From the NCBI GenBank assembly GCA_964035575.1, contig OZ037833.1:868001-932000 (forward strand): DNA of 64,000 nucleotides. Direction: 5' to 3'. The stretch is from Rhynchopus sp. YZ270_cl-10 (taxonomy: Eukaryota). The notes under the pieces were generated by a model. That model was given only the letters and a program-made list of their open reading frames with translations, did no database searches and was not told where the DNA came from. This document shows, piece by piece, positions 1,365-49,080 of this stretch (its first letter is position 1; the number at the start of each line of letters is the position of its first letter). The position numbers were made by a program, and so were the translations under genes.

Positions 1365-1784
1365 GACAAAAGCCTTTTAAATTTTGTTTTTCTGTGGTTA
1401 AGATTTTTTTTGAAATTTGGAGGGGGGGAAAAGGGGGTGGGAGGGAGGAAAAAAATAAGCTGCTTTTTATATCTCGAGACAATAGGTATTGTTTTGTTTT
1501 TTTGTTTGCTTTTTTTTAAAATACAGTTCTTTCCGGGAAGTGATTCACATAGAATATTAGATAACCGGTTTCATGTGAATGCAACAGGGGGGTAGAGGGG
1601 GAGAAATTTCTTTTTTGGGAGGTCATAAAAATAATGGGCTTAAAACACACAAAAAGCTTATCAGATGAATCTAAGCACCCCTCTTGTGTTTAGTCATCCT
1701 CAAAAAAAAAAGGTGGGGGGGAAAGGTAGTCGTTAATGAACACCCTCCTTAATGAGTGAAGCTCAATAAGGATTGAGACGGATA

Positions 1785-2726
1785 CAGGCCTAATGCTAAC
1801 TTTGGGGGAGGGGGGAAAAAAGTGAACCGACGGAAAAAAAAAAAAAAACGAAAAAAAAAAATTCCTCCCCTCCTCCGGGAAGGGGTCCAGGGTTTTCGCT
1901 TATCTTCATGAAAAAAAATTTTCCCCAAAATCGTGAAGATATGTCCAAAAAGGGGTCAAAAATTTTTTTTTCGCGCTCCGCGCGAAAAGGTCCGTTCATT
2001 TCGCGTAAATACGTGATGACGTGGGATGGTAACGTACATCAAGAACCAAACCAACCCTTTTCTCACGTTTTTCCACGTCAAGCCCTCGCATTAGGTTCTC
2101 TCTAGTGAACGAAACCTTCCCTCAGGACAAGAAGAAACGGCGGTTGATATCAAAACTTTCTGGCGAAGCCACGGTACGCAACATTTCAAAATTTGTGACC
2201 TAAAACCGAACATTTTTACAGCCAAACTATGGTAGAGGTCTGTGGGCTGCCAGTTTTTGAGCTGCGCCGCAGGCGCACGGTACGCTACTTTTTTAATTTT
2301 TGCCGGCAAGGGGGGGTGCATCATTGAGTCCCTGAAACAAGTCTCCATCGTCACCGCCATCGCAATCGCCATCTTCGCTTTCCTCTTTAACATCAACAGA
2401 TGCAACACTGCTCTCTGTATCTTCAGAGATCAGAACTTCTCCAACACTCGATGTCTCGTCGACTGACAGACCCTCCTCCTCCTCGAACCCAGTGGTGGGG
2501 CCGCAGTATGCACTGCTGTGTCCTTCTTTTAATCTCCCTTCCTCCTGAAGATGCGGGCGCAGGTGCCCACATCTCCAGGACCAAGGTACCCACGGCATAC
2601 CACAGGCAGAGAACCCCCCATCCCAAAAAACCCCCATTTTTAAGGGTGAACCGACGAACCAACGGATAAATAAAAAAAATAATAAATAAACGTGAACCGA
2701 CGAACCAACGGTTAGCATTAGGCCTG
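1785..2726. mobile_element. Non-autonomous hAT-like DNA transposon
   Basis: Perfect 16-bp TIR CAGGCCTAATGCTAAC. 8-bp TSD GACGGATA (1777-1784 and 2727-2734). Subterminal GAACCGACG repeats. Acidic ORF fragment inside. Confidence 0.9.
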
Positions 2727-2894
2727 GACGGATACACAGCCAAAAAAAAAAAAATAATAATAATACAGCGAGAGATGTACATCAAGCAAACAGAAATTTT
2801 TCGAAGAGAGGAGGGAAAAAAAAAAAGAGAAAAAAAAAACGTCAACGAGAAAGGAGAACTACCTCCCGATACCTGATAAAAAGTATTTCAAATA

Positions 2895-3175
2895 CTGTAT
2901 TCGTACAAAAGTATCGACCGTAAAAAAAAAAGAAAAGTTTATAAGATGATCCTAAGCCTCTCGTGCTTAGTCACCTTATCATATTCGCTATCGCACAGCA
3001 TCAGCGGCGCTGGCTTCCACAAGTTTGTTGTCAGGGATGATGTCATTTCCCCAGCCGGAGTTCGTAATTTTGGCACGTACGATGACGTGTTCGAGCAAAA
3101 AAAAGGTCGAACTTCCAAAAAAAAATTTCTGAAAAGGTCGAACATTATTACGGTCGACAATATTCCCGATTACGG
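2895..3175. mobile_element. TA-flanked Tc1/mariner (pogo/Tc2-like) MITE, degenerate copy
   Basis: 3095-3177 matches the MITE at 26502-26606. Ends are TA|CTGTATTCG ... CGATTACGG|TA. A family-A micro-element is nested at 2932-2977. Confidence 0.55.
2932..2977 (-). repeat. Hairpin micro-element family A (representative copy)
   Basis: Plus-strand consensus GAAAAGTTTATAAGATGAACCTAAGCCTCTCGTGCTTAGTCACCTT. Full or partial copies near 1662, 2943, 3762, 4008, 4108, 4706, 9647, 13276, 13536, 14218, 16254, 16750, 25709, 30461, 31318, 32328, 32429, 37118, 37450, 38258, 41288, 44103, 44963, 48545 and 49028. Confidence 0.9.
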
Positions 3176-3864
3176 TATTAAAAAAAAAGCGTGTTATAAC
3201 AGGGGTGTGTACACTTGGCAAGAAAGAAAGAAAAAAAAGTTCAGAGATGAGCATGCCTCACGTACCTACACATCTAAAAGAAAACTGCAGTTGGGGCGAC
3301 TAAGCCCCGGGGCAATTTTACCCCCTCAAAAAAAAAAAAAGCTTTGTTCGGGTACGATGAAAATGTAAGTGGCAATGCCAAGGCACAAAATTTGCGCTCT
3401 CACTACATTCCCACTACATTCGGTTTTCACTTATGTTATGACGACACTATTTTTTTTCATTATTTCTCCTGACTTGGGGGTGGGAGCTTTTTTATTTTCT
3501 ACCCAAAAATTTCAGGAAACAACAGAGGACAAGCTTTGAAAGATGAATGGAACACTGCACTTGGTTTGAAGAAAGATTATTGAAAAAAAAAGGGGGGAGG
3601 GGTGAAGTTCGTCGCACTTTCCTATCGTTTGTTGCAAATCTCCTTGGTGATTTTTGTGCGGGCAAAGAATGGAGGAAAAAAAAAAACATGCGACGTTAAG
3701 TTGAAAGTGCAAACGCCTCTGGGACGCAGGCACTGACACTCCGCGGGGGAAAAGGTTTTATAAGATGACCTTAATCATCTCGGTGCTTAGTCACTTTGAT
3801 CACAAAATCGTTATCGTACAGCATTAAACCCAACAAAAGCAGGAGGGGTCAAAGAGAAAAAAGA

Positions 3865-3912
3865 GAAGTTGAAAAGTGCAAACGCCTCACCGTTCATAGG
3901 TGGACGCAGGCA
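3865..3912 (-). repeat. Hairpin micro-element family C (representative copy)
   Basis: Plus-strand consensus GAAGTTGAAAGTGCAAACGCCTCACCGTTCATCGGCGGACGCAGGCACTGA. Copies near 3699, 3865, 13466, 16014, 34173, 37169 and 42234. One inverted copy at 35978-36020 lies inside a DNA transposon. Confidence 0.85.
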
Positions 3913-4463
3913 AAAAATATATATACAGTGAACCACCTCCGTGCTGTGCTCCAGGACAAAGAAATCGACTGTTTTGTGGTGTCAAACGAAGAACAGTTTT
4001 TTTTTATAAGATGACCCTAAGTAAGCCTCTCGGTGCTTAGTCTGATTAGATTATTCTTTGGTTTATTCATCAGTCATTTGTTTTTTTTTATGTTTTTTTT
4101 TGTCTCTAGGTGACTAAGCCTCTCGGTGCTCAGTCACCTAAATAAAATGCCCTCGCGCAAGCCTTGCTGCGTGCGTCCCACCCTTTTTTTTTTTTTTTTC
4201 TTCTTTTTCGCAGTCGCTCCCTAAAAATTCTCTTGACAATGGAACAAGAGGAACCCCGGGTGGATAAGTTACTAAACAAAGAGAAAACTGAACGTGCAAA
4301 AAAAAAAAAAAAACCGCCTCACCGTGCATCGACGGATACGGGCACAAACAACTTATTTAAAAAAGAGAAAAAAGGAGAACAGGAAAAAAAGGAAAGTACA
4401 GAGAGTATCATAAGAGACTTACACGAGCAAAGCAGCAAATACGGACAAAAAAAAAGGGGGGGG

Positions 4464-4504
4464 GTTGACTTGAAATACAAAGCCCTCTCGTGAACAATGT
4501 ACCT
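4464..4504 (-). repeat. Hairpin micro-element family B (representative copy)
   Basis: Plus-strand consensus AAAGTTGACTTGAAATACAAAGCCCTCTCGTGACAGTGTACCT. Copies near 4464, 4934, 6094, 7421, 30398, 31253 and 45011. Confidence 0.85.
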
Positions 4505-5701
4505 TTGGTACAATGACCGGCTGTACAGGGGGTCCTACAATCCATTTCGTGGTTTACATCTGAGAAAAAGTGAAGATGTTGTGCAAAGTGCAAAACCCTT
4601 TGCGGCCCCAAAGAGTGCACCGCAAGGACAATCGTGATCTGCCCCCTTTTTTTGTAACATCAACAAAAAAACCACCCCAAAAAACCGAAAGAAAAAAAGG
4701 TTCGCAAGATGAACCTAAGCCATGCTTTGAGTCACCTAAAAAAAATTTTTTTTTGCTTTAAAAAACGTGTGTTCTGCCCCACTAGCTCCCCGTTCTTATG
4801 TTCGTTTTGTTTTTGTTTTTTTGTTAAAAAATACAGACACTCATTTACCCGAGCGCCATTGGAGGCTAGGTTGTGTTCACAGAAAGAAAAAGGTGTTCCA
4901 TGTATGGTTTAGTTGCAAAAATAAAAATAAAAATGTGACTTGAAATAATAAAGCCCTCTCATGACAGTACGCCTGAAGAAAGCTTGTCAGATGCCTCTCG
5001 TGGCACACATACACACAGTGTCACACACACCTCGGAGCATATTCTGCGCAAGAATTACCCCCCTATTAGTTATCAAACACATCTTTTTACCACTATGGTT
5101 ATCGTGCAAACAGAACACAGAAAAGAGAAAAAAAAAAAATTTTTTTTTTTTGATAAATTGTTTTGGAGTAGTGTAGTTGCCTTGGTTGTGTTGCCACAGT
5201 TGTGCAATCTCCACTTTCCTTTTTTTTTTTGTGAGATAAGTCGGAAGTTTAGTGCTGAGTCAGCTAATAATAATAATAATAATAAACAGAGCTGCTTTTC
5301 ATGAGTGACAGAGACGGACAAAGGGGCAGGCATGTTGGACCATGCAGGGAAACACTTTTATATAAGGCAAAAATAGTGACTCTGATAGGTAAAAGGAAAA
5401 AGGCTTTTCTTTCCGTTGATTGCTCAAATTATTTACAGAGGTGATTAAGCGACCGTATCTGAGGAACCCTCTTCTCCTTTAAGCTACGCTTGTAGGTACA
5501 AAAAAAAAAGAAGAAGAAAAAGAAAGGTTTTGTGGTCTGAAAGGGGCTGATTCGCACTGTTCCCCGCACTTTTTCCGCCCCCCGATTCAGCCACACCATT
5601 AATTTTTTTTAAAAATACACTTGGTATCCCTTTGCATGTCCACCCACCCTCTTTCTCTCTCCCTCTGTTCATATGACTCGAGTGGAAAAGGTAAAAGCGC
5701 T

Positions 5702-5850
5702 GGAAACTTTTAACTTGTTGTTTAGAAGATGACCTGCCCGAAGACAGGCTTCTGTACACACTGTATTGGGTTGTTTTGTTTTGTTTTGCTTTTTTTTGAA
5801 AACTTGGTTTTGTATTAGTGTAGACACCCCCAAGGATGGGCTCCACTATA
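5702..5850 (-). repeat. Composite of a UUCG-hairpin element (family H) and a family-D element
   Basis: AACTTTTAACTTGTTGTTTAGA..ACCTGCCCGAAGACAGGCTTCTGTACACA.TGTATTGGGTTGTTTTGTT followed by a family-D copy. The same arrangement recurs at 40933-41054. Confidence 0.85.
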
Positions 5851-6522
5851 CAAATTAAACACGCTTTTTAAGCAACTGATGAACACACGAAGATTTCTTT
5901 TCTTTTCTTTTCTTTCCTTTTCTTTACTGTTCGTTTCATTTGCTATTCAAAATCCGGGACCAAAAATGACAGAGGTCTGTTGTGGACCTTCAAACAAACT
6001 AATCAATAATGCAGTACCCTACCTACAACATAACTAACGAATACAAAAAAAAAAACAAAAAAGTACGGGGGAAAAAACAAAGAGAAAAAATTTTGGCTTG
6101 AAATGTAAAGTCCTCTCGCGACAGTGTACAAAAAAAAGAAAAAGAAAAATATGAATACTAGCTACACTGTCCTTCCCCACCCCAACCCCTTTTTTTTGTT
6201 AGAACATTGCTGAAAAGTGTTTTTTTGGGAGTGTTGCTCTATTTAGGTTGGTACCCCACACCCCCATTTTTTTTTAAATATTACCTGATACCCTGGATAC
6301 CATAAAAGTTGCTGTGACGATTCCACTCTATGAGTTGGGCCGGAAAATCGCCAATACTGTGAGAACGTTCTCACATTTTTTTTTCTTCTTCTTTTCTTTT
6401 GCTTTTTATTATTTACCGTACAGAAGTGTGCGAACGTGAGGTAGCGGTGTTGGTGGTCTTCTTCGTTCCTGTTTTCGGCTTCGAAGACGCTCTGTGTGTA
6501 GGGCGTTGGTTTGAATGGAATA

Positions 6523-7258
6523 CAGTGCTCCCGCTAAGACAGAACCTCAAATACCCCGTGACCCAAGCTAATTATGTCAGGAACGCAGCCACATAGGGGT
6601 GCGAACGGCGAACCGCCGGGGAAAAAAAAAAACCTTGTCAGCTAATGCTTTCTTTCGGTGGCGCTCCCAGTGGTGGAAACTATTTTGCCCATCCAGCGAG
6701 TCAGGGTGATGGGATTGAGGCTCAATGAACTGAACGCAAAGTTCAGTCTTGGTGTCCGTTTTGGTAACGGCACCAGCTACGAGGACCTACCCGCGAGAAG
6801 GGCGAAGCTGAGGGAGGCGATCACAGCGGCAAAGGAAGCGTTACGGGAGCAAGAGAGCTCGAGGATGGAGTTGCAGGACCGTGCAGAGAGCACTCTGCTT
6901 TTTGGAGAAGGGGCCGGCGTCACCAGCAACGCTTCCCAGCCTGCCGACACCACCAACGACAGCGACACCGGCAACAACACCGCAATCAGCACCGGAGTCG
7001 TTGAAGAGTTGACCCGCGCACAGCGATGGACTGCGTTGTGTGAGAACCTCTCCGGATTCGGTGTACACGCCAAATCCCAATTTGAACTATTTCCTTATGT
7101 GTTTTTGGTGAAGTGCTTCCAGAGTGGAAGGGGTTTTCTATCCCGATTGCGCTTAAAGTGCGACAATGGATGCACCCCGCATCTTGCAACGAGTCGGGAG
7201 GGCGGCGAGTGTTCGCCTTGAGATAGCCAGGCTCAAACCGGCCTTAGCGGGAGCACTG
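6523..7258. mobile_element. Non-autonomous hAT-like element carrying an ORF
   Basis: Perfect 16-bp TIR CAGTGCTCCCGCTAAG. 8-bp TSD ATGGAATA/ATGGGATA (7 of 8 match). Confidence 0.85.
6658..7221 (+). pseudogene. 187-aa ORF inside the hAT-like element (transposase remnant or captured gene fragment)
   Basis: GC-rich open frame with a coiled-coil-like stretch, confined within the TIRs and opposite in orientation to all host genes. No recognisable domain. Confidence 0.35.
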
Positions 7259-7378
7259 ATGGGATAATATAAAAAAAAAAATTGCATCAGCAATCACTTC
7301 ACATGATATAAAGCTGCGCTTGGGAGTGGTTTACAGGGAAACTGTAAGCAGGTATACAGTCATTACCATCAAAAACAA

Positions 7379-10300
7379 CTACAAGAAGGAATGGCAACTA
7401 CTGACACTACAAAAAAAAAAGTTGATTTGAAATACAAAGCCCGCCCCCCTACCTTGAAAAACACACACATACCGAGGAGACATCGTACGCACCAGCTTCG
7501 CACGGCCTGGGGTGAGTGGACTCACGGACCTGCGCCCATTAAGGTTTGGCGACGCACTGCGTGTCTGGTTCGGCGAAACATTCCTTTTGAAGGTGCGTGG
7601 GGTGGGGCTGGCCTGCTGGGTGAGCACGGGGGGGTCTGAGTGGTAGGGCGCTTTGTCTGCTTCTGTGAAGACGTCGTCACGCTCACCTTTGTAAGGTGGT
7701 GGGGAGCAGGAGCGTTGGGGGCGGGGGAGTGTGGGGCACTTCAGTCCGTCCATGACGACGTGCAGCTTCTGGTCTTCGTCGTAGATGCGTTCAGGGGAGG
7801 TGCTCCGCACGATGTCTTCCCCTAGCATCTGACGCATGCGCTCTGCACCTTTCCTTGCAGGGTCGGCACGCAGCATTTGGCGGAGCTTTTCTTTGTTGGG
7901 ACGGTTGCTGACGTAGCGCATTTTGAATTCGGAGAAGGCGCGCACCGCGTCGCGGACGTCCTGCATTGTCCAGTCTTTGGGGAGGTTGCCGTCGCTTGCG
8001 TGGATGAGCTCGAGGAGCAGTTTGACGTCGTCGAAGACGTTTGAGTATTCTTCCTCCTTGCGTTCCAAGTTGGAGAGAGTATACCGGAGGGACTCCTTGT
8101 CGTGCATTGCGTCTTTGAGGAGTTCGCCGTTGGTTCTGATTGCTTCCTCTGCAGTGGTCTTCTCGTGCCCGACGCGGTGGAGGCGTGCTTCGTATTGGCG
8201 AATGGAAAGGGCGTGGGCGTCGCGTTCGTTTTGCAGTTCGGTGCATTTGGCTACCAGCTCGGAGTCGTGTCGGCGGATTTTGCGGTGCGCCTGGTCAAGC
8301 TCCTGTTGAAGCCGTTCAATGTCTTTGTGATGAAGGCGTTGCTTGTAGGTGGCGTCGTTCTCGACAGCGCGGAGGTCAGACTTCATGTTGTTTTTGTCGG
8401 CCTCTCGCTCAATGTGGAGGCGTTGGATCTGCAGTTGGTACTCCTTCGCCATGTCTTCTGATTCTTGTACGATGGCGCCAAGCTCGCGGTCGTGGTGTTC
8501 GCTGGTGTGTTGCTTCTCGAGTTGGTGTTCTGCGAGGATGTCGGACATTTGTTGGCTTAGTTCGTTGATGCGCTCGGTCATCGCTTGTTGATGTTGGTCG
8601 GAACGTTGTTGGTTGGAGAGGGCACGCTCGCGTTCGACGCGAAGGGCAGAGTCGAGGTCGCCTGCACGTCGTGACATATCGTCTTCTTTGAGCTTCATCA
8701 AATCCTTCTCGCGTTTCAAGCTGTCGACCAGCTCGCGGTGATCTGCTAGATCGTGTTTCAACGCTTTCGCTGCAGTTGCTGCCGCCTCTGCTTCGGTCTT
8801 TTTTGATTCGATCTCGTCGTGCGCGGTTTTTAACCTCGCCTTTGCAAGACCAATCACCACTGCACTCTTGAATGCCTGAGCTACCTGCCGTTCCTTCGTC
8901 TTCTCAAGCTGTGCTTTGATCACTTCAGCGTCTTCTACTGCCTTTGAGAAGCGGGACTCCATTTGCCGTTTGTCGTTGACTGCCACTTCGAGGTCGGTTT
9001 TGACGACTTCAAGCTCCTCTTGGGAGGCTTTGCCTTCCATGTCGTCCATTGCCTTTTGTGCGTCGATGATACGCTTTTCCATGTCGGCGAGGAGCTTGCT
9101 GGTGTCGTCCTCGTTGACCTGCAGGTTGTTTACAATGGAGCGGGCACGCATCGCGTATTCCAGCGTACGGAAGGATTCATAAGCATTGCAGTGGTGTGGG
9201 CTGACTGTTGCAAGCATATACGTCTTCGCGTTGCCTCCCAAGTCCTGGCGGAGGAGCCACGTCAGCGTGCTGTCTCTGTAAGGCACCACAATACCCGGTT
9301 TCTGCTCAATAAGCGCGTCAATGACACGCCGCAACGTCGTCAGCGACAGATTGATCTTCTGAGCCTCGAGGAGGGTGCTGCCTTGCGCGCCGCTGCGTTT
9401 GACGTTCTCGCTTCCAGCAAGGTCGACAAGGTTGATATTCGCACGGCGCACGCTTGTGAGCTGAGAGGGGGGTGGAGGTGGAAGTAGTGGCGATGTGACA
9501 AAGGGATAACATACCGTTTTAGGCCCTCCGATGCCCACCCGTTCTTGCCGGAGAACTGTTGTTTGCGTGAGGGATATCTGTTAGGTTTGGTTTATTTTGT
9601 TGGGGGAAAAGAGACGACGCAGATCTTGATAGTATAGAAAAGCTTTAGATGAACCTAAGCCTCTCGCCTCGTTGCTCCCTTAGTCTGATTAGATTATTCT
9701 TTGGTTTATTCAGCACCTTGGATATGACATACTCTGAACATAGCATGGGAACGTGACGACCTATCATTCAGCTTTGTCTGCGCAATGCTACGTGCCTGGT
9801 TGCCTGCTGTCACAAGAGCGATCATGTCTTTGTAGCTCTTCGGCTTGAACACCGTTGTGCCATGGACGTATGGCCCGGAGACAGGGTGTTCACGCACTTT
9901 GAGGTCGTCGCTGTCGAGGGGCTTGCCCACCTTAGCGGCATCGTGCTCGCGCATGCTTTCACATCCTTCTACACGCGCCTCTGCCAGCAGATCCCTAACC
10001 TTTTCGTTGTAGATCTCGAGGAAGCGCACCTCGACCTCGCTTTGCTTGGTGAAGCCGGTCTTCATGCTTTGCTCCTGCCAGAGCTCCATATCCGTGAACA
10101 GCGCGCGGCAGAGCCGTGGGATCACCCCCATCGCTTCTTCTGGACAATCTGGGTCGGTGATCTGAGCAGGATCCCCCATCATGGTATGGGTCTTCCCGGA
10201 CCCTGTCTGTCCGTAGGCGAAAACGCAGGAGTTAATCCCTTCCCAGGCGGTTTCGAGGCAAGGCGCTCCGGTAGCTTCGTAGACCTCGCTTTGCGAGGCA

Positions 10301-10674
10301 AATGGCACGTCCGTGTTTTTTTCTTGCGTGCAGGACCAGAACACTTTGTCAAAGTTGAACCCAGTTTTGGTGGTATAGTCGTTCTGGTGGTCGAGGAAGA
10401 GGACCTGGTCGATCCGGGGCATGTTGATGACCGACTGGAGGTAGCTGTTGTCTTCAGTGGCCTCTTTGATTTCATAGTCCCCGAAGGGACGGACGCGGAC
10501 CATGACCTGAACAGAGTCGGATGAGTCCTTCTTCCCCTTCTTCGCCCCTCCCGGAACACTCGACCCTCCCACCGTTCTTGTTTTTTCATACGAGCTTTTC
10601 AGCTGTTCCGTAGTAGGCAACGCAGCTTTCCGTTTCATTTTCCCTGCGCTTGGGTCATACTTCTGAGCCCCCAT
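7379..10674 (-). CDS. Kinesin motor protein (kinesin-3-like head, long coiled-coil stalk), spliced
   Basis: Motifs GQTGSGKT, VREHP..GPYV, SSRSH, LVDLAGSE and PYRDSTLTWLL..LGGN. Exons are 10674-9733, 9577-9515 (ISLTQTTVLRQERVGIGGPKT) and 9460-7473. Introns 9732-9578 and 9514-9461 are GTATGT..CAG. A further GTATGT donor at 7472 makes the true 3' end uncertain. Confidence 0.92.
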
Positions 10675-11407
10675 TTCTCAGAATTTCTCAGACCAAAACA
10701 AAAAACAAAAAAAAAAACAAAACAAAAGTGGGTTTTGTTAAGAAACTCTAAGGGAGGGAAAGAAGGGAAAGGGGGGAACCTTAAAAACAATCTACTGCAG
10801 CTTAAATGTCTATCAGAGGATGGTGTAAATACAAAGGGGGGGGGATGGGGGTGGGGTGGGATTCGGGATGGGGTGGGGGATGTGTAGGGTGTGTACCCCC
10901 TGGGTTGTGTGGTGAAGGGAGAGGGGATTTTTGATAAATAAATATTTTTTTTGAATAGATAAAAGCAATAAATTACTTTTTATTTAAAACAAAAGGCACT
11001 CCGTATCCAAAACAGGGGGGCAGTCTGGGGACAAAAACAGATTTCTGTATTGGGGAGGGTGGGAGTGTTTTTCGCTAAAAGGTAGGATTAAAAGTAAAAG
11101 AAAATGATGTAAAACATCGGGTAGTCGGGTCCACTTGGAAAAGGAAGGGAGAGGGGAGAGGGGAAAATGGAAACAAAAAAAAATGAAGGAAGCTTTTTTG
11201 CGTTTTTTTATTTATTTTTTTATCTGCTGCGTTTTTTTTTGCATGAATGGTGGATATTTCCCTTCTGATTTGTGGTTGTTTTTTATCTCTCCGGATTGTC
11301 CTCTGTGTTCATCTTTTATTCCAAGGTGTTGGAAGCAATATGCATCTCTACTGCAATCACACCCTATGAGTGAAACACTAAGGAGTTTCCCATGAATCGA
11401 TACGTGC

Positions 11408-12935: not shown

Positions 12936-12988
12936 TTGATAAATTGTTTGGAGCAGTGTAGTTGCCACGGTTTGTGCAAATCCCCACT
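12936..12988 (-). repeat. Hairpin micro-element family E (representative copy)
   Basis: Plus-strand consensus (T)nGATAAATTGTTGGAGTAGTGTAGTTGCC..TGCAATCTCCACTTTCC. Copies near 5150, 12936, 16580 and 17489. Confidence 0.85.
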
Positions 12989-13031
12989 GTTGTTATTTGA
13001 AAAATTGACAACGCGTAGACACACCACCTGT

Positions 13032-38292: not shown

Positions 38293-40233
38293 TTATCGCA
38301 CATTAGCTGCATAGGCTTCCACAAATTTGTTTGGGATGATGCCATAACAAAAAATAATACAATAATGGAAGCTCTCTCTGAGGTACAAAAAAACATGCAC
38401 TTCCTCGACCTCCACTTTCGCTATCGAAACCCTCCCTCCTCCCTCCCTCCCTCTCCTCCATACCCTCATCCCCGACAACGCAACACCGACACTGTTGACT
38501 AACGTTGTAAACGTCTGCGGAATTTCTCGCACCATCTTCACCAATTCCTCCTGCAGGTCAACCTCTGCCGTCTGCACATGCGCACCTCCACGACGCGACG
38601 GCGCCACACCCGCACCCGCACGCACACCACCCCTACCACCACACCCCCTCTCACTCTCCTCCTTGTAGATGCGCGCAAACTCACTCTCCAGCTCTTTGGT
38701 GTAGTGGTGCAGATCGTGCCCCGGAGGGTTAAACCGCTTGCAGTTATCCCAGACCTGCTGCACATCTGCCAGTACCGTTTCGCCCGCTGTATAAAGGTTG
38801 TTTCTCAACAGCGCTACTACGGTACCCAAATCCATTGGTCGCTTAATCACTGCGAGATAGCCAGGGGCACGGTCGCGGACGGGGTCGACTGGGCGGAGGA
38901 AGAGGAAGAGATCGTCGTCAAAACGGCGCTGTTTCAGGAAGCGGTGCAACGCATGCGCAGCCAGACGCACATCATCCGGAATCTGTTTTGCCAGAACCGC
39001 CGGCGCGATGTCAGCTATGCTTGCCAACGAGAAATCACTGCTCTCCGCAAAAGGGGATGGATACGTTCCCCTCAATGCATCAGGGCAGAACCCTTCTGAG
39101 GACGACCCCGATCCATCCGAAGACGCAACGCTAGGAGACCCATTCACCACACGCACGCATCTGAAACTCAATGTCTGCGGGCACTCCCCAGCCTCCACCA
39201 ACCCTAGGTCCTCCCCTACAACCCCAGCACCCCCGAGAGACACCCCACTAGGCTTCCTCCCACAGCTTTTCACCTCCCCATCGAGAATCAACACATTTTC
39301 AGCTTCAGGAGGCGGCAACGTCAAAATCTGCGGCGTCGCGCACGACAACGCAGGAAGCGGACGTCCGATACTGCGAACAACACTATGCGGGAGGTGGCGG
39401 GGTTGGAAGGAGAACGAAACCTCAAGAGCTGTCCTGGTAAGTTTTCCATTACCGGGAGCGGTGAGGTTGTCAAGCATTGAGGCAGACGCAGTGACTATAT
39501 CCTCCGAGGTGGTTACAGAGTACGAACCCAGATCTGATGAGATCTGCTGCAATCTACTGCCGATAAAGGGCAAAAACTGGGCATCTCCTGCAGACAGCAG
39601 GACTGCGCCGCTAAATCGCAGCCCAAATACAAGCTGCGGCACCCCTCCGACCTCACACGGCACCTCAACGGAGACGATACGTTGTGCACCCCCACATACA
39701 CACCCCAGATCCGACGAAATCAAACACGCACACCCACCACGCCGCTTCCTTTTCAATACGGCACTCAACGATGTGGTCTGCGCCTGGCAAGCCTCTGCTG
39801 TCTCCTCAAAGACACGCCGTGCTGCGTTTACTACCGTGGAAGGCGTTCCTTTGCGGGTCGATTTTGCGGCAGATGCGAGTCGTGGTCGGGTAGATGACGA
39901 CATGGTCTGAATAGCCGAACGCATCGCTTCAAGCGATTCGGTTCCAGTAAAGGGGCTGCAGAAGGGTTCCCAGGTACGTTGCGACGCCCAGGCTGCGCGA
40001 ACGGCAGCAGTCGCCGTTTCGTCGCTATGAGAGAGGAGGAAGGCGGCGTCGCTCAGATCTGTCGGAGCTGCCTCGGGGTTCGCCAACGGAGAAGGTGAAG
40101 GCCCCTCGGCGTACTCTGTCAAATGCTTCTCACGCCGATGCACTTCCGCCCCTTCCCCATACACCAATCCCACCTCCTCATCCCCCAACCGAAAGCAAGC
40201 CGGGACACTCACCCCCAAATCTTTTCCGACCAT
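38293..40233 (-). CDS. Bromodomain-containing protein, possibly with a spliced ET-like C-terminus
   Basis: FLRPVDP...PGYLAVIKRPMDLGTV...DVQQVWDNCKRFN with the conserved Asn. Likely ATG at 40233. A GTATGG donor at 38463 suggests the annotated ORF end is intronic. Confidence 0.85.
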   Translation of the reverse strand: MVGKDLGVSVPACFRLGDEEVGLVYGEGAEVHRREKHLTEYAEGPSPSPLANPEAAPTDLSDAAFLLSHSDETATAAVRAAWASQRTWEPFCSPFTGTESLEAMRSAIQTMSSSTRPRLASAAKSTRKGTPSTVVNAARRVFEETAEACQAQTTSLSAVLKRKRRGGCACLISSDLGCVCGGAQRIVSVEVPCEVGGVPQLVFGLRFSGAVLLSAGDAQFLPFIGSRLQQISSDLGSYSVTTSEDIVTASASMLDNLTAPGNGKLTRTALEVSFSFQPRHLPHSVVRSIGRPLPALSCATPQILTLPPPEAENVLILDGEVKSCGRKPSGVSLGGAGVVGEDLGLVEAGECPQTLSFRCVRVVNGSPSVASSDGSGSSSEGFCPDALRGTYPSPFAESSDFSLASIADIAPAVLAKQIPDDVRLAAHALHRFLKQRRFDDDLFLFLRPVDPVRDRAPGYLAVIKRPMDLGTVVALLRNNLYTAGETVLADVQQVWDNCKRFNPPGHDLHHYTKELESEFARIYKEESERGCGGRGGVRAGAGVAPSRRGGAHVQTAEVDLQEELVKMVREIPQTFTTLVNSVGVALSGMRVWRRGREGGGRVSIAKVEVEEVHVFLYLRESFHYCIIFCYGIIPNKFVEAYAANVR

Positions 40234-41980
40234 TTGAAGGAGGGGGGGGGAGGGGAGGGGGAGGGAGGAGAAAAGAGTGTAGTAAAAAGGCCTCCCCCCG
40301 CCCTCAAGCTGTCTGATAGACAAGAAGGTGTTCTGGTGCTGCACCCATATAGTAGGGGGAGTGGAGGCGATGGGAGTGGAAGAAAGTGTGTAGATAGAGT
40401 TAAGAGGAACCCGCCTGGTGAAGAGGTGGTGTGGGGTTTATGTGGAGGGGGGGGGGGAAAGGGGGGGGGCAAGAAATGCTTGTTTATCCCTCACAGAATG
40501 ATTAATTATTTTCAATCGAAAGATGGAGTTTTTTGTCCAAAAACAGAAGAACGTTTTTTGGCAACCTTTGGCGGCTGTCACCATGCAGCTCCACCCTCTC
40601 TGTTTATGCGCATTTCCCTACCAATGATGTACCGTCATTAAAAAAAAACATCAAAAAATGGTGTGATCACCAAACCGATTCTCCGTGGTTCACCCGAAGG
40701 TGCTCCAGTAAGGTATAACCCCTAGCAGTTCTAAAAAAAAAAAGAAGAAAAACAAGAAAAGGGGGGTTTGTATTGCTTTGTTTTTTTTTTTTGAATGTGG
40801 CAGTGGAGTCCACTATTGTTTTTTTTTCCTATTTTACGAAAAATTCTTCGCCTGGAATGGGGGGGGGTTGGGTAATGGGGTAATGAAGGGTATTTTGGAC
40901 AAATAAAAAAAAAACGAAATAATTAACACGATGGCAACTTTTAACTTGTTGTTTAGACGGTCACCTGCCCGAAGACAGGCTTCTGTACACAATGTATTGG
41001 GTTGTTTTGTTGTTTGAAAACTTGGTTTAGTGCAGACGAGGATGAACTACACTACATTGATTTTTTCCCCCCATTTTCTTCCAGACATGGTGTCATTGTA
41101 GTTGTAAGAGCGATTCGCTCGAAGGTTACCGACACCAAGGCTTGGATTTCTGTGAGGTGAAGAAAAAAAAAATTTTTTTTTTAAATGCGCGCCACATTTG
41201 TAGGTGCAGTGAGGGGGACTTCCAAATATGGGCGGGAGGGAGATGAGAAGTAAAAAGGGGGGGGGGAAAAAAGGTCAGGTGCGCCATCTAAGCCTCTCTC
41301 GTGCTTAGAGGTCTGGGAGGTGACAAATGGTGCCCAATACTGGGGCCGCATTTATCAACGTCAAAGAACAAGGGATAAGAAAAGCGAGAGAAAAAAAACT
41401 GGAAAAAAATTTTTTTTTGGGTGATGGGTTGGGTCGCGCAGGGGGACACACAACCAGCATCGGTTGAAAAAAAAAAGGGAAAAAAATAAAAAAAAGAGCG
41501 GCTAAAACGTGCTAAAAAAACGCATCTCAAAAAAAAATAAATAAATACAAAATGAGAAAAACGACATTGTGTCGATATCCGCTCCTTCAAAAAAAAAAAA
41601 AATCTTTTTTAAGCTGCCCTCCCACCACACCCTAGAGGTGGGGGATGTCTGAGACATAAGAAGAACGAAAGTATTTCAACATATGCAAATCAATAAATTG
41701 ATAGCATAGGAGAAACAAAGAATCGAAAAAAAAAAAAAAACACTTTTCTCCTTAATGCTTTGTATAATACACCCAAAAGGTGGAGGGGAAGGGGCACTGT
41801 ATGCTGCTTTGTTTATTTTAATTTTTTTTTCTCCTTCTACGTGCGGAGGGGTACCAAATGTCACTACAAGGGGTGTTAGCACTACGTAGGTAGGGTTTAG
41901 AAATAGTAGGATCGGTAGGTAAAGTTGTTTCGTTGTGATATTGGCAAACCCTACCCGGTAGATACAATGGGGTAATTATC

Positions 41981-42063: not shown

Positions 42064-43495
42064 AGTCATTTTCCCAAAAATACTATTTCTCCTTTAAAGC
42101 AAGCTTCGTAGGAATAAAAATTAAAAATAAAAAGCCATATCACGGTAAAACTAACTTTATAAAGTTAATCAGGATAAATCTTTTTAGTAAAGACGTGAAT
42201 GATGCTTTGTGACGAAAGAAAAAGGTACTGTTTTGAAAGGCTCAACGCCTGTGGGACGCAGGCATTGAAAAAAAAACCTCCCCTATCTTCGTTTTCGTTT
42301 TTTTTTTTTTTTTGTATTTTTTTTAAAAAACCCCTATTGTCGTGCTAGACCCCTTCTCCATCTTTGGATTTTGTACCCTGTACGATGTCGGTTTCTGAAA
42401 GGGGATGAAATACGAAAAAAAAAAATTAGGAAAAAAATGAAGAAAAAAAATGAAGGGGAAAATATAACGTAGCTGGAAGACACGCCAGATACGACAGTTC
42501 TAAAGAGAAGAAAAAAAGGTATTTTTTTTGGCAATAAAAATGTCCTCCTCTCGGAGGTCATCTTTATTTTAGAAAAAAAATAACTTATTTCGATACCCTT
42601 GATAGATTTTACGTGAAAAAAAGGCGGTTTATCTACTGTGACACACACGGCTTCCAAAAATATTACTTCGAGAGCGATCGGTCACAAAAACAGCGTCGGT
42701 TAAGGTGGGGAGAGGGGTATGGGGTGGGGGGAAAGATCAATGAGCCCTTCAGGTCTCATTGGTAAAGGAAAATCTTGAAAAGAAAAAGAAAAAAACGTGC
42801 CAGAGCACAACACAGATCAAGAAAAGAAAAAAAAAATATTCAAGAATTCTGGAGAGATGCGAGAAAAGGGAGGAATGGGAAGAAGGAAGAGGTTGGTTGA
42901 CACACGCAAACAATCTTGTGGTTTTTTTTTTTTTTTTTTTTTTTGAAAACTTGGTTGTATTAAGTGTAGCCACCCTAGAGTGTGCTCCACTATATACGTT
43001 TTTTTTTTCCTACCAACCCAGGGAAAAGAATATGGGGCCAAGGGGAGGGGGGGGAGAAAAAAAAAGGGGGGGAAACGTGAGGATGCATGTTAGAAGTAGT
43101 GTGTGCTGCTGTGCATTTGTATTAATTACTGCACGCAGTCTCTACTGTGACACACTGTCATCACTCTTCTTCTTTTTTCATTTGGTATCAACAATTCACT
43201 TTTAAACCAACTGGGCACAGTACTCTAAATGGGTTTTGGCGTAAAAAAAAAGCGCCCAAAAAAAAAATAAAATTCCCAAATTCGTCGAACTTATTTGTAC
43301 AATAAGTTTTCTTGGAAATCTGTATTTCTGTGCTCAATTGCAGGTCGAAACCTTACTCTAAACGTCGTCTTATCCTTAACCCTTTTTTTATGGTATCAAA
43401 CCATTCAAAAAAAAAAAGAATTTTTTTTGTTTGGTTTTTGACTACTATCACAAAAGGTAGCAGACGTTTTTTTTTTTTTTTTTTCTTCTCAGGAT

Positions 43496-44045
43496 CAGGG
43501 AAATAGCTTGGTTTTCTTCCAAAATCAGGAATTATGCGAAAACGAATTTTTTTTTCCGCCCGGTCGAAAGCGGTCGTTGCGCTTCGCGCAAGCCTCACTG
43601 AGTGGAGAGGCGAAAGGTCAATTTGCGAGATAACCAAAAACGGTATGTAATCCCTTATTACGGAGCTTGGTCTTGCACCTTACGTTCCACTAACCGTATG
43701 GAAAAAAATAAATGGCGCCGCAGGCGAAAAAAAATAGGGTACGGTGTAAAAATGCTGGTTTACAACCACACAGTCACTCAACAACCCTTTTTTGCGGAGC
43801 AAAAAAGGAAAATGGCGCCGCAGGCAAAAAAAAATTAAGGGGTACGGCACATCTGCAAGCGCAGCGAGCGAAAATTTTAAGGTTCCATCATTCCAGTCAT
43901 CTGGGAGATCTGGGGGTCCGCGGGCGAGGGTACCCCAAAAGTGCCCAAAAATCCCCTCTTTTTTTTTTTTTTTTTTTTTTTTTCCCCCAAAAAAATCCAG
44001 AATTATGCGATGTCGCATAATTCGGTATATGGAGCTATTTCCCTG
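43496..44045. mobile_element. Non-autonomous hAT-like element with 8-bp TSD
   Basis: Perfect 13-bp TIR CAGGGAAATAGCT. TSD CTCAGGAT at 43488-43495 and 44046-44053. Confidence 0.9.
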
Positions 44046-45344
44046 CTCAGGATCTTTAAAAAAGAGAGCAAACAGTACGTCTAGTAAAAAGGAAAAGTGT
44101 ATGAGATGAACCTAAGCCTCTCATGCTTAGTCACCTTTGACCAACCAATCAAAAAAAGGAAGAAGAGGTGGGGCCTTTGCCCTCAAAATCACCTGAAAAG
44201 TGAGCTGGTTTTTTGTCTTTGTTTAGAGATTCATCAATAAGGCATTTGCTTTCTTTCTCGAAATATATTTTTTTTTTCGTTTTCCAGTAGAAGTGGGGGG
44301 GGGGTGAGTAAAATCAAATGGCCGGTGAAGTAAAACCACAGTTAAGTCATTTACTGTAACCATCGTGAAAGAAAAAGCCCAATGGAATAATGAATGTGAC
44401 GGCTAAGGTAACATACATCAAACACAAAAGACCAACACTCCCACCATCCTAGTGTTTTTTTTTTTTTTTTTATCATTTCCTGGTAGGTCTTTTTTCTAAA
44501 CCCTTTTCTTACATTTAGAAACCTACTAAAAGGGAGGGGAGGTGGTGAGGGAATGGGAGATCACCTTGAGCAACAAAAAGAAAAAAGAAGAAAAAAAAAA
44601 ACTAGAAATTCTGAAATTTGAAACAAATGAGTGTGCTTCACGGGGGCACAGACACTGTAGAGGGTAACGAAAGTTTGACGTTTGACAAAAAAAGGGAAAT
44701 GGGGGGTGAAATTGGGGAGGAAATAAAAGTGCATTACAAAAAAAGCAAACAAAAAAAAAAAAAAACTGCGTTGTACGTGGATAGGTCAACTGTCCCAAAA
44801 TCCATTCAAGACACTCCCAAAGGAAAATTTGAGAATATTCGCACGGTTACCCCCTCACGTCGCAACAAAATGAAGAAAAAGAAATACAATGAAGATGCAC
44901 CACGCCTCTGCGTGGGTCATCTTCAATAAACGGCAACTATGAAAAGAAAAGAAAGGTATATTAAGATGCTCCTAAGCCTCTCGTTGCTTGGTCACCTTGA
45001 AGAAAATTTTTTGACTTGAAACACAAAAGCCCTTCTCGGCAAACGGTGCGTTGGTACGTAACCGGTGCACCGGTGCACCGAGAGTCGACCCCAATCATGC
45101 CATAGTCTTACATCCATTTCGAGGGTTACGCTTGAAGAAAGTGCGCAACACCATCCAACAATACAAAAAAACCTGAACGATTCCACTCTGTAAATTCTAA
45201 AAAAAATAAAAAAAATAAAAAAAATAAAAAAAAACGGGGGGAAGTATCAAAACGGACAAAATAGGGGGGACGAGGTTGATGACATGTTAAAACGCTTCCT
45301 CACCCCCCCAAAGATGACACACAGACCAGTTGTAAGATGAATCT

Positions 45345-47017
45345 GGGAGCGTCCGCGAAAGACCCCCCCCTAAAGCTAACATCCATGCTTATTGGTATTT
45401 CACTAATTAAAATTTTGGTATTTTATAAGATCTTTTTTTTTAAATGAACTCAGAGTTAAGTCAGAGTCCTAGCTTGCCTGGGTCAGTGGGTCAAGCTGAC
45501 CCAAGTGCCTGGGTCGCGACCCACGAAAAAAAAAAAAAAAGGGAATTAATTAATTTGGAATTGGGAAATTCTGATTTTTTCCCCTCTTTGGGGGGGCCCA
45601 CCACCTTTTCTGGGGTAAGAAAAAAAATATTGACAAAAAAATCCGGCACCGTCCAGGGCTGGACCCAATTTTTTTTGCCTGCGGCGCCATTTTTTCCTTT
45701 TTTGCTCCGCAAAAAAGGGTTCGTAGAGTGACTCTGTGGTGTAAAAAGCTACATTTTTACACCGTACCCTAATTTTTTTCGCCTGCGGCGCCATTTTATA
45801 TATTTTGTGTTGGGTGATCTATGAACGGGGAGTGATTTTTATGGTAAAAGTAGCGTTCCACTTAACGTTGTGAGCAACTCACTAGTCGTAGTGGCCAAAA
45901 TTTGTATCAGTCAAGAACTTGTCCATTTTTCTGAAATGACCCCACCACAGTGAGGGTAGAGCTCGGAAAACCCAAAAAAGCCAAGACAAGCCCCCCAAGG
46001 CCCAAAACCTCTGCTGACCCAAAAAAAAAATTCTGACCCAGATTTGGCATTTTTTTCCAAAACCAAGCTAGGACCCTGGTTAAGTTTCTGAGTTCATTAA
46101 AAAAAAACTCGGTGAAAAATTCCGAGTAGGTATTAATTTAGATAGGAAAAGCTATGTCAACAGCTATGTGTCCCCTTATTTTCCCTGTAAATACTAAGGA
46201 TATAGGAAGGAATTCACTAATATCTGTCTCTAACCCATTATCAAAAAGGGGGTAGGAAAGAAAGGGGTGGAGGCTTGTCGCCCCCTCCGAACACTCTAAA
46301 TAGAGCGCGAAAGAGCTTCACGCTCCGGGTCGTCTGCGGCGACGTCGACTTTCTCGCAGAAAACCCCCTTTTTTGAGTGACCCTATTGACCACCGTGATG
46401 AGTCTCTCCAAGAGTCCCAGACAATTGTCCGCCTGTTCCTCCTCTTCCTCCTCCGTCTCGCTGTCATTGTCCTCCTGGGGTGTCGCTGATGCAACTACAG
46501 GAGTAGTAAACGGCGGACACCCCTTTTCTCCTGGTGGTTCTCTTCTGCATATGGAGGGACATATGCTTCGAGCTACACACCTCGTGCATCCAGCTCCTCG
46601 CGTCCCACCCTTTGCCCCCCTGCCAGTGAACCCCTGCATACACCTGCAGCTCGGCGAAGTTTTTTAGGCCTCGGAAAGGCCGGGTTTTCAGCTCCTGAGC
46701 GAATGCTTTGGCTGCTGATTCCATTTCCCCCTGTTGTGTTGTTCTGTGGGTGGTTATATGGGTGTTTGTGAGGATTTCCTTGTATATCCTTAGTATTTAC
46801 AGGTAAAATAAGGGGACACATAGCTGTTGACATAGCTTTTCCTATCTAAATTAATACCTACTCGGAATTTTTCACCGATTTTTTTTTTAATGAACTCAGA
46901 AACTTAACTCTGAGTTCATTTTAAAAAAAAATCTTATAAAATACCAAAATTTTAATTAGTGAAATACCAATAAGCATGGATGTTAGCTTTAGGGGGGGGT
47001 CTTTCGCGGACGCTGCC
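45345..47017. mobile_element. DNA element with TIRs of about 235 bp and 4-bp TSD
   Basis: The left TIR (45345-45461 plus 46086-46204) matches the right TIR (46783-47017). Termini GGSAGCGTCCGCGAAAG. TSD ATCT. Broken ORF inside (46241-46724, minus strand). Confidence 0.9.
45462..46078. mobile_element. Nested CAG(A/G)G-ended element with 7-bp TSD
   Basis: TIR CAGRGTCCTAGCTTG. TSD GTTAAGT, confirmed by the empty site in the host element's right TIR (about 46894-46920). Confidence 0.92.
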
Positions 47018-47120
47018 ATCTACATTACGTGTATGCACATCATTTGCCAAATGTTCCGCCAACAAAACAAAAATTTTCACTGAAAAAAAAAAAAAAAAAA
47101 AAAAAAGTTTGCACCTCGTG

Positions 47121-47878
47121 CATACTTGTAGCTAACTAGCCGTGGTACGTGGCGATTTTGTTTCCCAAAAGAAAGAAAAAAATCGGCCGGAAAGAAATTT
47201 TTTTTACCCAGGAAAAAAATTTTTACCCAGGGAAATAAATTTCCCTCAGGCACTAAATTTGCCTCAGGAAATAAATTTCCGCCAGGAAATAAATTTGCCC
47301 CAGGAAATAAATTTACCTCAGGAAATAAATTTACCTCAGGCAATAAATTTGCCTCAGGAAATAAATTTCCCCCAGTAAATAAATTTCCCTCAGGCACTAA
47401 ATTTGCCTCAGGAAATAAATTTCCGCCAGGAAATAAATTTGCCCCAGGAAATAAATTTACCTCAGGAAATAAATTTACCTCAGGCAATAAATTTGCCTCA
47501 GGAAATAAATTTCCCCCAGGAAATAAATTTCCCTCAGGAAATAAATTTGCCTCGGGCAATAAATTTGCCCCAGGAAATAAATTTCCCTCAGGAAATAAAT
47601 TTCCCTCAGGCACTAAATTTCCCCCAGTAAATAAATTAACGCGCTGTTGCCCTGTTTCTCAGCAACAAGCGTCACAGATTCAAGAGAAAACGGAGGTGTT
47701 CCTGCTGATGGCGGAGGAGTTGGAAAACGTCGCTCCCCCCGTATTTGTTTCCGGAATTGAGCTTCTGAGGACCTTTTTCGCGCGAAGCGCGAAAATTTTT
47801 TTTTTGCCAAAAAGAAAGAAATTGGGCGTGGAATTCTAAAATTTTTCGGGAAAAACGGCATATTTAGCGATAAGTATG
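47121..47878. mobile_element. Non-autonomous hAT-like element with an 18-bp minisatellite
   Basis: Imperfect TIR CATACTT..GCTAA..GCCGT. Perfect 8-bp TSD ACCTCGTG at 47113-47120 and 47879-47886. Confidence 0.82.
47228..47636. repeat. 18-bp minisatellite (CAGGAAATAAATTTSCCT) x about 22
   Basis: Read directly. The unit is quasi-palindromic, and a higher-order block of about 7-8 units is repeated. Confidence 0.95.
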
Positions 47879-49080
47879 ACCTCGTGTGCAGTACCGTCTC
47901 CGCATCCCTCCATGAAATATGTGAGGGAGAGGCGAGGGGGGAAAAGGGGAAGTATGGGGTGGGGTGGAGAAGCAGCGAAGACTAAACCGATTCTGTTCCC
48001 AAGATGTATTGGAGACCACTGAGAAAGCATGAACATTCGTCTTCTAATTGTTTCGTTTTTTCCCCACCCCTGCCGCCATGGTTGTGGATAGAACAGAAAA
48101 AAAAAGAAAAAGAAAATAAAACTGAAAACTAACACTCCTGGTAGTCAGCGTCACGCCTACTACGGAAGGTTACAATGGAAAAAAAATACCTTTTCTGCAT
48201 TCGATATTTGGTAGGAACGCAACAATAATTCGATAAAAAAAAGGGAGAAAAATATGAGAAAGATGACATCCAAACCTGGGAGATGGCAGATTCAGCCAAA
48301 AGCCGGTTGCTTTATTTGTTTTTTGTCACCTTTTCTGGATAAATACTCCGTTTTATTGTATTAGTGCAAGGCTTAGCTCCACTATTATTTTTTTTTCTTC
48401 TGTTTTTTCCCGCTGTTGCTGGGGAGGGAATATGGCGACGTACAAGACAACTTCCAGAGGTGTATGCTATGTCTGAAAGAAACGTCTCATTTTGTCAAGG
48501 AAGACACAGTTTGGTAACAAGAAAGAAAGAAGAAGAAAGATTTGTGAGACGAACCAAAGCACCTCCAGTGCTTGGCCAGCTTGCAAAAAAAAAACAACCG
48601 TCGATTGCAAATCGACAACTTGACAAACAAACAAAAAAAAGAAAAACTCGCACTAGGGTAATCAAACCTTGTGTATCACGAGTCTGTGTTAGCCACTCAT
48701 CGACAGCCCCCCCTTTTACCCTCCATTGTCACTGGGTAAGGTGCGTCACATGTCACTACCTTTGCGTATCGTTGGCAAAGGTAAGAGTGCAACGCATGCC
48801 CACTGAACAGGGTTGGGACAATGGGGGGTGTGGTTCCACACCGTTGTTTGCTTGGCAATAAGATGAAATCGGGTGGGGTTCCCAGTGCACGCCTGAGGGG
48901 AAGAGGGAGGGGAAGGGGAAGGGGTGGGGTGGGGGGATGAATTCAGAAGTGTGTATGTGTTACCGGCAGGTTTAACTGGCGGTGAGACACTGTTGTGAGT
49001 TGATCAAAAGAAAAGTTTTGTAAAGAAAAGATGAACCGAAGCCTCACTGTGCTTCGGCCAAAAGTGGATGTGACAAAGAC

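Follow-up and report, generated by a model that had tools for sequence, protein, structure and literature searches.

What are the short hairpin repeats that crowd the spaces between the genes of a Rhynchopus chromosome, and how did nearly all of them come to point the same way? The question arises from the window analysed here, a stretch of 64,000 nt from Rhynchopus sp. YZ270_cl-10 (assembly GCA_964035575.1, contig OZ037833.1, positions 868,001 to 932,000). A preliminary description of this DNA, made from its letters alone, recognized seven families (A to F and H) of 40-60-nt elements without a coding partner, and took them for either minimal retroposons consisting of a hairpin and a tail or a processing and stability code for polycistronic transcripts. 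We consider it probable that families A and C constitute the 3' ends of two families of long interspersed nuclear elements (LINEs), that B, D, E and F are likely the equivalent ends of further LINEs, that insertion likely proceeded through target-primed reverse transcription, and that H is unrelated to the rest.

Copies were called by self-comparison and then by iterated nhmmer profiles on both strands (E<0.01). A dense repeat population is indeed present: 58 profile matches of seven families fall within 1656-49059 (A 23, B 6, C 9, D 8, E 4, F 3, and H 5 at three loci), with H differing in kind, and 57 of the 58 are on one strand. The A-F matches (n=53) are all non-coding and amount to 1.5 per kb over 35,076 non-coding bases. 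Among the loops reported earlier, the GNRA type is borne out, AC(GNRA)G occurring 30 times on the gene strand, 10 times on the opposite strand and 9.0+-2.7 times in shuffles; C(CUYG)G shows no enrichment (16 seen, 17.8 expected). The 3' anchor motifs are strand-specific (15 vs 1, 10 vs 0 and 10 vs 0), though a few of these occurrences are not elements. An Rfam scan returned 24 weak matches, none at the gathering score and none on a family copy, and exact-pattern scans of metagenome and viral contigs gave 0 matches.

Contrary to the initial impression, there are coding partners for A and C, and their open reading frame (ORF) tails lie within the window. Three A copies extend in the 5' direction on the gene strand. 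Translated, the added stretch gives the last part of an ORF, and the two indels that separate a pair of the ORF-bearing copies are each 3 nt long. The peptide encoded at 2991-3113 matches protein P0124 at 87% identity (E 1.8e-11) and ends on its last residue; P0124 comprises 1347 aa with the Pfam domains RVT_1 and Exo_endo_phos and has 44 cluster members. The full-length LINE-A protein, P0128 (1450 aa), combines apurinic/apyrimidinic endonuclease (APE) and reverse transcriptase (RT), is represented by identical sequences on several contigs and finds no match among phages; the best solved-structure match of the LINE partner protein is human L1 ORF2p. LINE-A is laid out as stop codon, 10 nt, A hairpin and U-rich tail, and in three frameshifted proteins from other loci (P0126, P0378 and P0379) translation continues from the ORF end into the A hairpin. 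Sequence variants of the short copies recur in the long ones, GGAT and GGGT in the ORF-bearing P0126 and P0379 and GACC in an ORF-bearing copy at 24955. Judged on sequence, an APE-RT LINE has family A as its 3' untranslated region (UTR).

Family C is identified in the same manner as the 3' end of a second such LINE. Its protein, P0156 (1340 aa, RVT_1 and Exo_endo_phos, 37 members, 54% identity in the RT), matches the window at 7367-7314 and 35881-35964, and at 35965 a stop codon precedes a 13-nt stretch and then the C hairpin. In the P0156 member P0283, translation goes past the end of the ORF and covers C hairpin sequence (E 2e-8), and contigs linking 3747 to 7315 occur in two sequencing runs (4 in X3, 3 in X5). 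An RT tree of 29 rows, built with no reference clade sequences, places P0128, P0156 and P0155 in one supported group (99/98). A B-box-like GGTTCGATAA in the long C copy was considered as a tRNA B-box and rejected, as it corresponds to the LINE-C codons G-V-R-stop. In P0122, the translation of a C hairpin and tail passes directly into a LINE-A fragment, which we read as one element inserted in the T-tail of another. Residues 5-17 of P0128 hold a 2A-like motif with His for Glu/Asn (GDIHPHPGP; variant GDVHPNPGP), shared with 11 relatives and N-terminal in diplonemid LINE proteins; motifs resembling it are found in 12 of 120 proteins. P0189, P0203, P0246 and P0252 carry an OTU-family domain (PF02338).

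The copies behave as 5'-truncated insertions. Most of the proteins examined extend to the C-terminus (30 of 33 for LINE-A, 12 of 14 for LINE-C), and the junctions of LINE-A proteins with foreign N-termini are scattered over residues about 920-1425. The residues before foreign junctions are 34% Phe (32/93, LINE-A and LINE-C pooled) against 2.5% within the LINE, which indicates insertion in T-runs. A paralogous pair within the window agrees: the repeat at 26516-26610 has a single T-run and the copy at 3088-3179 a T-run, LINE end and second T-run, with a modest downstream likeness that 1.3% of random segments equal in score. Partial A and B copies retain the 3' end in 6 of 8 cases among the matches listed. 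The hairpin base marks the start of 15 A copies out of 23, which have no more than 2 nt of the LINE UTR upstream; of the others, three have an ORF tail, two share another extension and three lack the 5' arm. In contigs of four sequencing runs (X3, X5, X6 and X8), compared with 10.4 kb of the window, sequences of other loci depart from the window at 2977, the hairpin base, into an A-run (209, 228, 35 and 7 contigs, respectively). The possibility that the families are ordinary 5'-truncated LINE copies of random length, which would have undone the original proposal, thus holds in part; a non-random spike at the hairpin base survives it, as does the near-total sense orientation.

Two kinds of tail exist, U-rich in A, B, C and F and A-rich in D and E, and the composition of the upstream flank follows the tail, with 56% T for 29 U-tailed copies and 65% A for 11 A-tailed copies (p 1.6e-5). 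The gene strand gives the more stable fold in 42 of the 58 matches, against 292 vs 293 for random 45-mers, the copies not being independent. Only family A clearly beats shuffled sequences (median z -1.97, best -5.6 to -7.7), and 15 of its copies keep 85% of pairs; RNAalifold finds five consensus pairs for C. Three A copies with a GCTTGG variant had been thought to pair better on the plus strand, whereas the whole copies are more stable on the gene strand (gene strand/other: -9.7/-5.6, -13.6/-12.2 and -9.9/-7.1). The arms of the A copy at 4094-4141 form a perfect palindrome, which suggests fold-back copying at the hairpin.

Given these observations, a mechanism can be proposed on the model of stringent LINEs (PMC3747384; this and the other papers are cited for their accessible parts). 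The whole 3' UTR of LINE-A and LINE-C would consist of a 10-13-nt spacer, a single bulged hairpin and a U-rich tail. The ORF2-like protein would bind the hairpin through stringent 3'-end recognition, the tail would anneal to a matching run at the nick and prime the cDNA, and synthesis would mostly stop once the hairpin has been copied, giving a 40-60-nt insert with a run on either side. A minority of cDNAs would continue into the ORF.

Several points weigh against this reading. The link between ORF and hairpin consists of window copies and read-through proteins, not of full-length LINE DNA; the LINE proteins would belong to the same organism as the window on the strength of 87-100% identity. 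The connection to a full-length RT protein was obtained for A and C; for B, D, E and F no parent turned up in 119 RT relatives plus the members listed for 10 other clusters, a search for which the window offers no long ORF-bearing copy as query. In agreement with the preliminary description, no target-site duplication (TSD) was found beyond the homopolymer runs on both sides, as judged from 40 copies (p 0.14 for all of them, 0.48 for the U-tailed ones): the repeat excess of A-tailed copies comes mostly from one copy and equals local background, and a flank-repeat signal in family A (p 0.005) disappears after collapsing runs. The orientation bias is seen in one gene cluster only. The consensus hairpins described for every family hold for A, and those of B to F are weak against shuffles (median z: B +0.24, C -0.72, D -0.71, E -1.5, F -0.2), with no consensus pairs in RNAalifold for B or D/E; all four E copies, as RNA, are more stable on the strand opposite the genes. 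Covariation, examined in 15 A copies with F rows excluded, is not significant (75/500 shuffles). Finally, composites recur at two loci each, D+J at 5698 and 40929 and A with a foreign 5' extension at 4002 and 9641, which may mean that other transcripts served as templates for a second copying of some short elements.

These composites favour some re-copying and lead to a different view of the short copies, namely that most are second-generation, promoter-less minimal retroposons re-copied from host mRNAs by the LINE protein in trans, with an upstream homopolymer setting the 5' boundary by microhomology. It takes the retroposon idea of the preliminary description to its strongest form and is compatible with the LINE-end reading; we regard it as rather unlikely. 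The sharp boundary at the hairpin base, with which the loose contig ends agree, is in its favour, as are joints of A with B, C or another A that keep fixed spacers and occur in contigs of two runs; templates exist, since contigs of the spliced run X5 cover seven copies (at 1426-1813 and within 3328-6372). Variants common to short and long copies favour instead a direct origin from LINE RNA and give no sign of a short-only subfamily; an internal hairpin would also require a 3' end at its own tail, and the A-F copies are not clustered in the window (9 close pairs, 10.4 expected). The minimal-retroposon idea of the preliminary description is right as to kind, A and C being LINE 3' UTRs, and unsupported as to independence, as the copies grade into ordinary 5'-truncated LINE copies. 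It can be speculated that promoter-free hairpin-and-tail retroposons re-amplify from host polycistronic mRNAs, inserted strand-specifically by template-strand priming, and so build long diplonemid 3' UTRs; we hold this to be doubtful. If true, several LINE families that differ in hairpin and in tail letter (U or A) seed sense-only protein-binding hairpins in these UTRs.

Orientation is the second conspicuous property. The expectation that the elements point the same way as the genes is upheld, and random orientation is not seen in this window: of the U-tailed copies 40 out of 41 run sense, and of the A-tailed ones all 12 do (52 of 53 for A-F). Run counts on the two strands predict 59% (U-tailed) and 41% (A-tailed) sense, and target availability therefore does not explain the bias. 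Window repeats bounded by terminal inverted repeats (TIRs) occur in both orientations, and element-element joints at other loci are on the same strand in all of the 15 joints listed, among which there is no between-strain empty site. The lone antisense copy is a long diverged C inside an 820-nt TIR element, which may have carried it there. In the proposed mechanism the cDNA would in every case belong to the strand that serves as template for transcription, through a nicking or priming preference or through purging of antisense copies; the bias was set either at insertion or by purging, which this window does not distinguish.

The same bias could be expected if the elements were a selected code for the processing or stability of polycistronic pre-mRNA. 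The kinesin gene bears on this. One X5 contig matches 10900-9733 and 9460-7473 with 63 letters in between, and GT-AG introns at 9732-9578 and 9514-9461 are the sole stop-free solution among four; the contig starts with 21 foreign letters, at an AG behind a pyrimidine tract. X5 was taken as RNA solely from this contig. As X5 behaves as spliced RNA and lacks intron 9732-9578, the 9641 A copy is intronic, as the preliminary description had it for a copy at 9647; a copy behind a stop codon (49081-49083) was also correctly placed. The 3.4 kb downstream of kinesin (3328-6780) contain 12 hairpin elements, in part covered by spliced-run contigs, and the covered copies within 3328-6372 would sit in one long kinesin 3' UTR. 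Variation in A is lower in paired columns (12%) than in unpaired columns (23%; p 0.001), and SIDERs are a precedent for retroposons co-opted in 3' UTRs (PMC2689281). As an origin, however, the code is very unlikely: A and C derive from LINE ends, one copy lies in a spliced-out intron, no fixed place relative to genes is kept, and the departures from Watson-Crick pairing (G-U 9, A-C 13) resemble neutral decay, in line with the absence of significant covariation. Later co-option of some copies for mRNA processing or stability may have occurred. Three figures from the runs were not used as evidence: the summed contig depth of A, about four orders above coding bins in X3, which is not copy number; the share of A with an ORF extension (2-12%, X3 and X6); and the bin 6852-7198, without X5 cover.

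For B, D, E and F, the ends of rolling-circle (Helitron- or Helentron-like) or other single-stranded DNA transposons entering T-runs without a TSD come into question. The missing TSD, the homopolymer on both sides and the better gene-strand folds of D and E with DNA parameters would suit them, and Helitron-like ORFs are reported in Diplonema papillatum (PMC10161547). B and F, however, have an apical motif or 3' anchor in common with A and C, which derive from LINEs; partial copies are 3'-anchored, and the partners found here are RT elements with no RepHel partner seen. A CTRR end is a feature of Helitrons, and none appears in the alignments, which end in U- or A-rich tails. We judge this origin highly improbable. 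A seven-residue match beside the D copy at 5795, considered as a parent hint, lies in mid-RT position and was treated as chance. H does not share the single architecture once described for every family; it is a TIR element of about 120-130 nt, resembling MITEs (miniature transposable elements with inverted repeats), with GGTGTGAT arms at both ends at two of three loci, and is unrelated to the hairpin-and-tail families.

Compared with known systems, the A-F population resembles truncated stringent LINEs. In stringent APE-type LINEs (eel UnaL2, SART1 and plant L1/SINE pairs; PMC3747384), all copies have the same 3' UTR stem-loop and repeat tail, and 3'-anchored truncation and an APE and RT partner are common to both; the present elements differ in a 3' UTR of about 50 nt, in most copies ending at the hairpin base, in U-rich tails and T-run targets, and in near-total sense orientation at their high density. 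By this analogy A and C would be members of the 5'-truncated stringent-type LINE copies, with a protein presumably requiring the stem-loop. RTE-clade LINEs and their short retroposons (Au, Sauria SINE, AFROSINE; PMC6007223) likewise share a 3' hairpin with T- and A-type tails, and the target sequence correlates with the tail letter as here; in contrast, our elements have no RNA polymerase III head and no clear TSD, and their partner protein bears a CCHC-like motif at the C-terminus and a 2A-like one at the N-terminus. A short interspersed element (SINE) is not indicated, as neither a tRNA gene (ARAGORN on the window) nor an Rfam family at gathering score points to a polymerase III head.

The ingi/L1Tc elements with SIDER, RIME and NARTc (PMC2689281, PMC12278014, PMC3708506) share a euglenozoan polycistronic host and a single-ORF APE-RT. 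P0128, with GDIHPHPGP, has an N-terminus resembling their 2A-like motif GD(V/I)ExNPGP, a kind of motif known from Ingi and five other clades (PMC3708506). A 77-nt promoter/ribozyme signature at the 5' end also marks this group. SIDER-type short derivatives are also abundant near 3' UTRs and sense-biased, but they measure hundreds of nt and keep the 5' signature and a poly(A) end (PMC2689281), whereas those studied here retain 40-60 nt of the 3' end only. In Leishmania the sense excess of SIDERs is about 4:1, with antisense copies enriched in spacers, against 52:1 here (p 1e-4 against 4:1). The RNase H of the ingi clade (PMC12278014) is not among the Pfam matches of P0124, which are RVT_1 and Exo_endo_phos only, and the ingi-clade poly(A) tail is not matched by the U-rich tails of A and C. 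The elements do not qualify as SINEs, as SIDER/ingi elements (no RNase H match, no poly(A)) or as Helitrons. The closest named relatives of the partner RTs are D. papillatum RT ORFs annotated as R2, X-element and jockey polyproteins (43-49% identity among the top matches); the accessible part of PMC10161547 describes neither their 3' ends nor short copies and states that a rigorous element survey is still due. A published description of these hairpin elements was not found: seven supplements of PMC10161547 gave no matches, the accessible parts of PMC12621601, PMC12278014 and PMC13598402 make no mention of them, and the sections on repeats and UTRs in the main supplementary file to PMC10161547 may bear on novelty. 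Unusual features are that most A copies end at the hairpin base, that U- and A-type tails go with matching run targets, and that orientation is near-totally sense. Three by-eye ideas were dropped: an HDV-like ribozyme on the plus strand (P1.1/P4 parts missing), an H/ACA RNA (too short, no box) and an IS200/605-type TCAA end.

Table 1. Repeat copies and LINE fragments in the window (window coordinates).
Feature	Position	Strand	Remark
LINE-A ORF 3' end (P0128 residues 1416-1450), stop 2990-2988	2988-3095	-	5' junction in T-run of older repeat
A hairpin and spacer, 10 nt 3' of LINE-A stop	2937-2978	-	U-rich tail to ~2922
Second LINE-A ORF tail, two 3-nt indels	38293-38345	-	stop also terminates unspliced bromodomain ORF
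A, internal deletion, 3' of second ORF tail	38252-38290	-
A plus short ORF tail of LINE-A (..AVR, stop at 3813)	3756-3824	-
A starting at hairpin base	1656-1700	-
A, different 5' extension common with 9641 copy	4002-4072	-
A, perfect-palindrome arms	4094-4141	-
A	4700-4739	-
A with shared 5' extension, in kinesin intron 9732-9578	9641-9715	-
A	13270-13311	-
A, GACC variant	13530-13571	-
A-like, longer apical part	14212-14270	-
A with insertion	16251-16303	-
A	16739-16784	-
A	25703-25744	-
A	30455-30499	-
A, GACC variant	32322-32363	-
A, cut within hairpin, 3' end retained	32424-32446	-
A	37112-37154	-
A, cut within hairpin, 3' end retained	37443-37486	-
A	44097-44137	-
A, GACC variant	44957-44999	-
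A, diverged	48540-48583	-
A, ~20 nt past giant Cys-rich ORF stop	49017-49059	-
Long C: diverged LINE-C ORF tail (stop 35965-35967), 13-nt spacer, hairpin	35881-36021	+	only antisense copy; inside TIR element 35535-36355
LINE-C ORF tail fragment (P0156 residues 1318-1335), no adjoining hairpin left	7314-7367	-
C with LINE-C 3' UTR extension	3698-3747	-
C	3867-3912	-
C	4285-4344	-
C	13466-13507	-
C	16016-16064	-
C	34172-34206	-
C	37170-37215	-
C	42231-42264	-
B, U-tailed	4465-4504	-
B	4935-4974	-
B	6093-6131	-
B, 3' part only	7422-7448	-
B	30399-30438	-
B	31254-31292	-
D, A-tailed, 5' half of composite with 5698-5790	5795-5850	-
D, best TSD-like flanking repeat (13/14 nt)	26101-26152	-
D	31751-31802	-
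D, subfamily 2	33900-33950	-
D, diverged	34523-34573	-
D	37645-37696	-
D, 5' half of same D+J composite (with 40929-41012)	41013-41056	-
D, subfamily 2	42942-42994	-
E, A-tailed, D-related	5150-5217	-
E	12936-12990	-
E	16579-16630	-
E	17488-17555	-
F, U-tailed, 3' TCATCT anchor as in A	3240-3276	-
F	13590-13626	-
F	36822-36879	-
J hairpin element: loop C(UUCG)G, 3' anchor resembling that of A, 3' half of D+J	5698-5790	-	second copy 40929-41012
H, TIR-bounded MITE-like, not hairpin and tail	15261-15392
H, second TIR-bounded copy	25366-25484
H, one TIR only	40660-40707

Further repeats accompany those of Table 1. Lone sub-threshold hairpins on the gene strand, with a C(GNRA)G apex or TCATCT anchor, lie at 14504-14533, 15002-15053, 15497-15530, 17000-17040, 41285-41308, 42540-42570, 44605-44658 and 48260-48290, and are probably additional families. 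Other small dispersed repeats, with one orientation per family, may be LINE ends: 14078-14151, 34224-34252 and 38147-38198, and the pairs 20321-20376/36764-36823, 5038-5077/37762-37801 and 15908-15951/41666-41710. Nested TIR-bounded or palindromic (MITE-like) elements occur at 12230-12770, 25344-25592, 26639-28011, 33299-33742, 35535-36355, 43469-44072 and 45344-47018, and 135-nt arms that are 96% alike at 46079-46213/46774-46908. Perfect or nearly perfect tandem arrays occupy 12472-12645 (9-nt unit), 13867-14012 (8 nt) and 47143-47714 (18 nt). A high-copy dispersed repeat in both orientations (1931-2300, 34660-35460, 32800-32831) has a summed contig depth in X5 of 0.2-1.4% of X3, against 17-119% for the hairpin families, a lead only, as contig depth is no expression measure.

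All long ORFs of the window are on the minus strand; they comprise kinesin, EXO1, a giant Cys-rich ORF, a bromodomain protein and, as judged by eye, a DNA ligase I-like gene. The host is assigned to the diplonemids, since the top named relatives of EXO1 are Sulcionema-labelled (54%) and Hemistasia-labelled (45%) proteins. The giant ORF (49081-64000, minus strand) is intron-less, with more than 4900 codons in the window, repeats of about 50 residues and a transmembrane-like end, and extends past the window edge. The kinesin region (6780-10900, minus strand) has a trans-splice-like acceptor at 10901/10900 and an extra GTATGT donor at 7472, its last exon likely lying near 6807. The unspliced bromodomain ORF (38293-40437, minus strand) ends on the stop codon of a LINE-A fragment, and the host-like P0126 (KH domain) and P0127 (adenylate/guanylate cyclase) have the same LINE-A peptide as their C-terminal end; such ends are either exonised LINE tails or gene-calling read-through across introns.

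With the 3' ends of LINEs in place of a puzzling repeat population, two intact partner proteins can be named. The spike at the hairpin base provides a candidate recognition element of about 35 nt, of which nature offers many variants, in a compact LINE with T-runs as its target. The bias of 52:1 in both U- and A-tailed families makes it testable whether orientation in polycistronic genomes is set at insertion or selected. The 3' UTRs of D. papillatum have a median of about 800 nt and reach several kb (PMC10161547), and the density of copies found here may help to explain why diplonemid 3' UTRs are unusually long.

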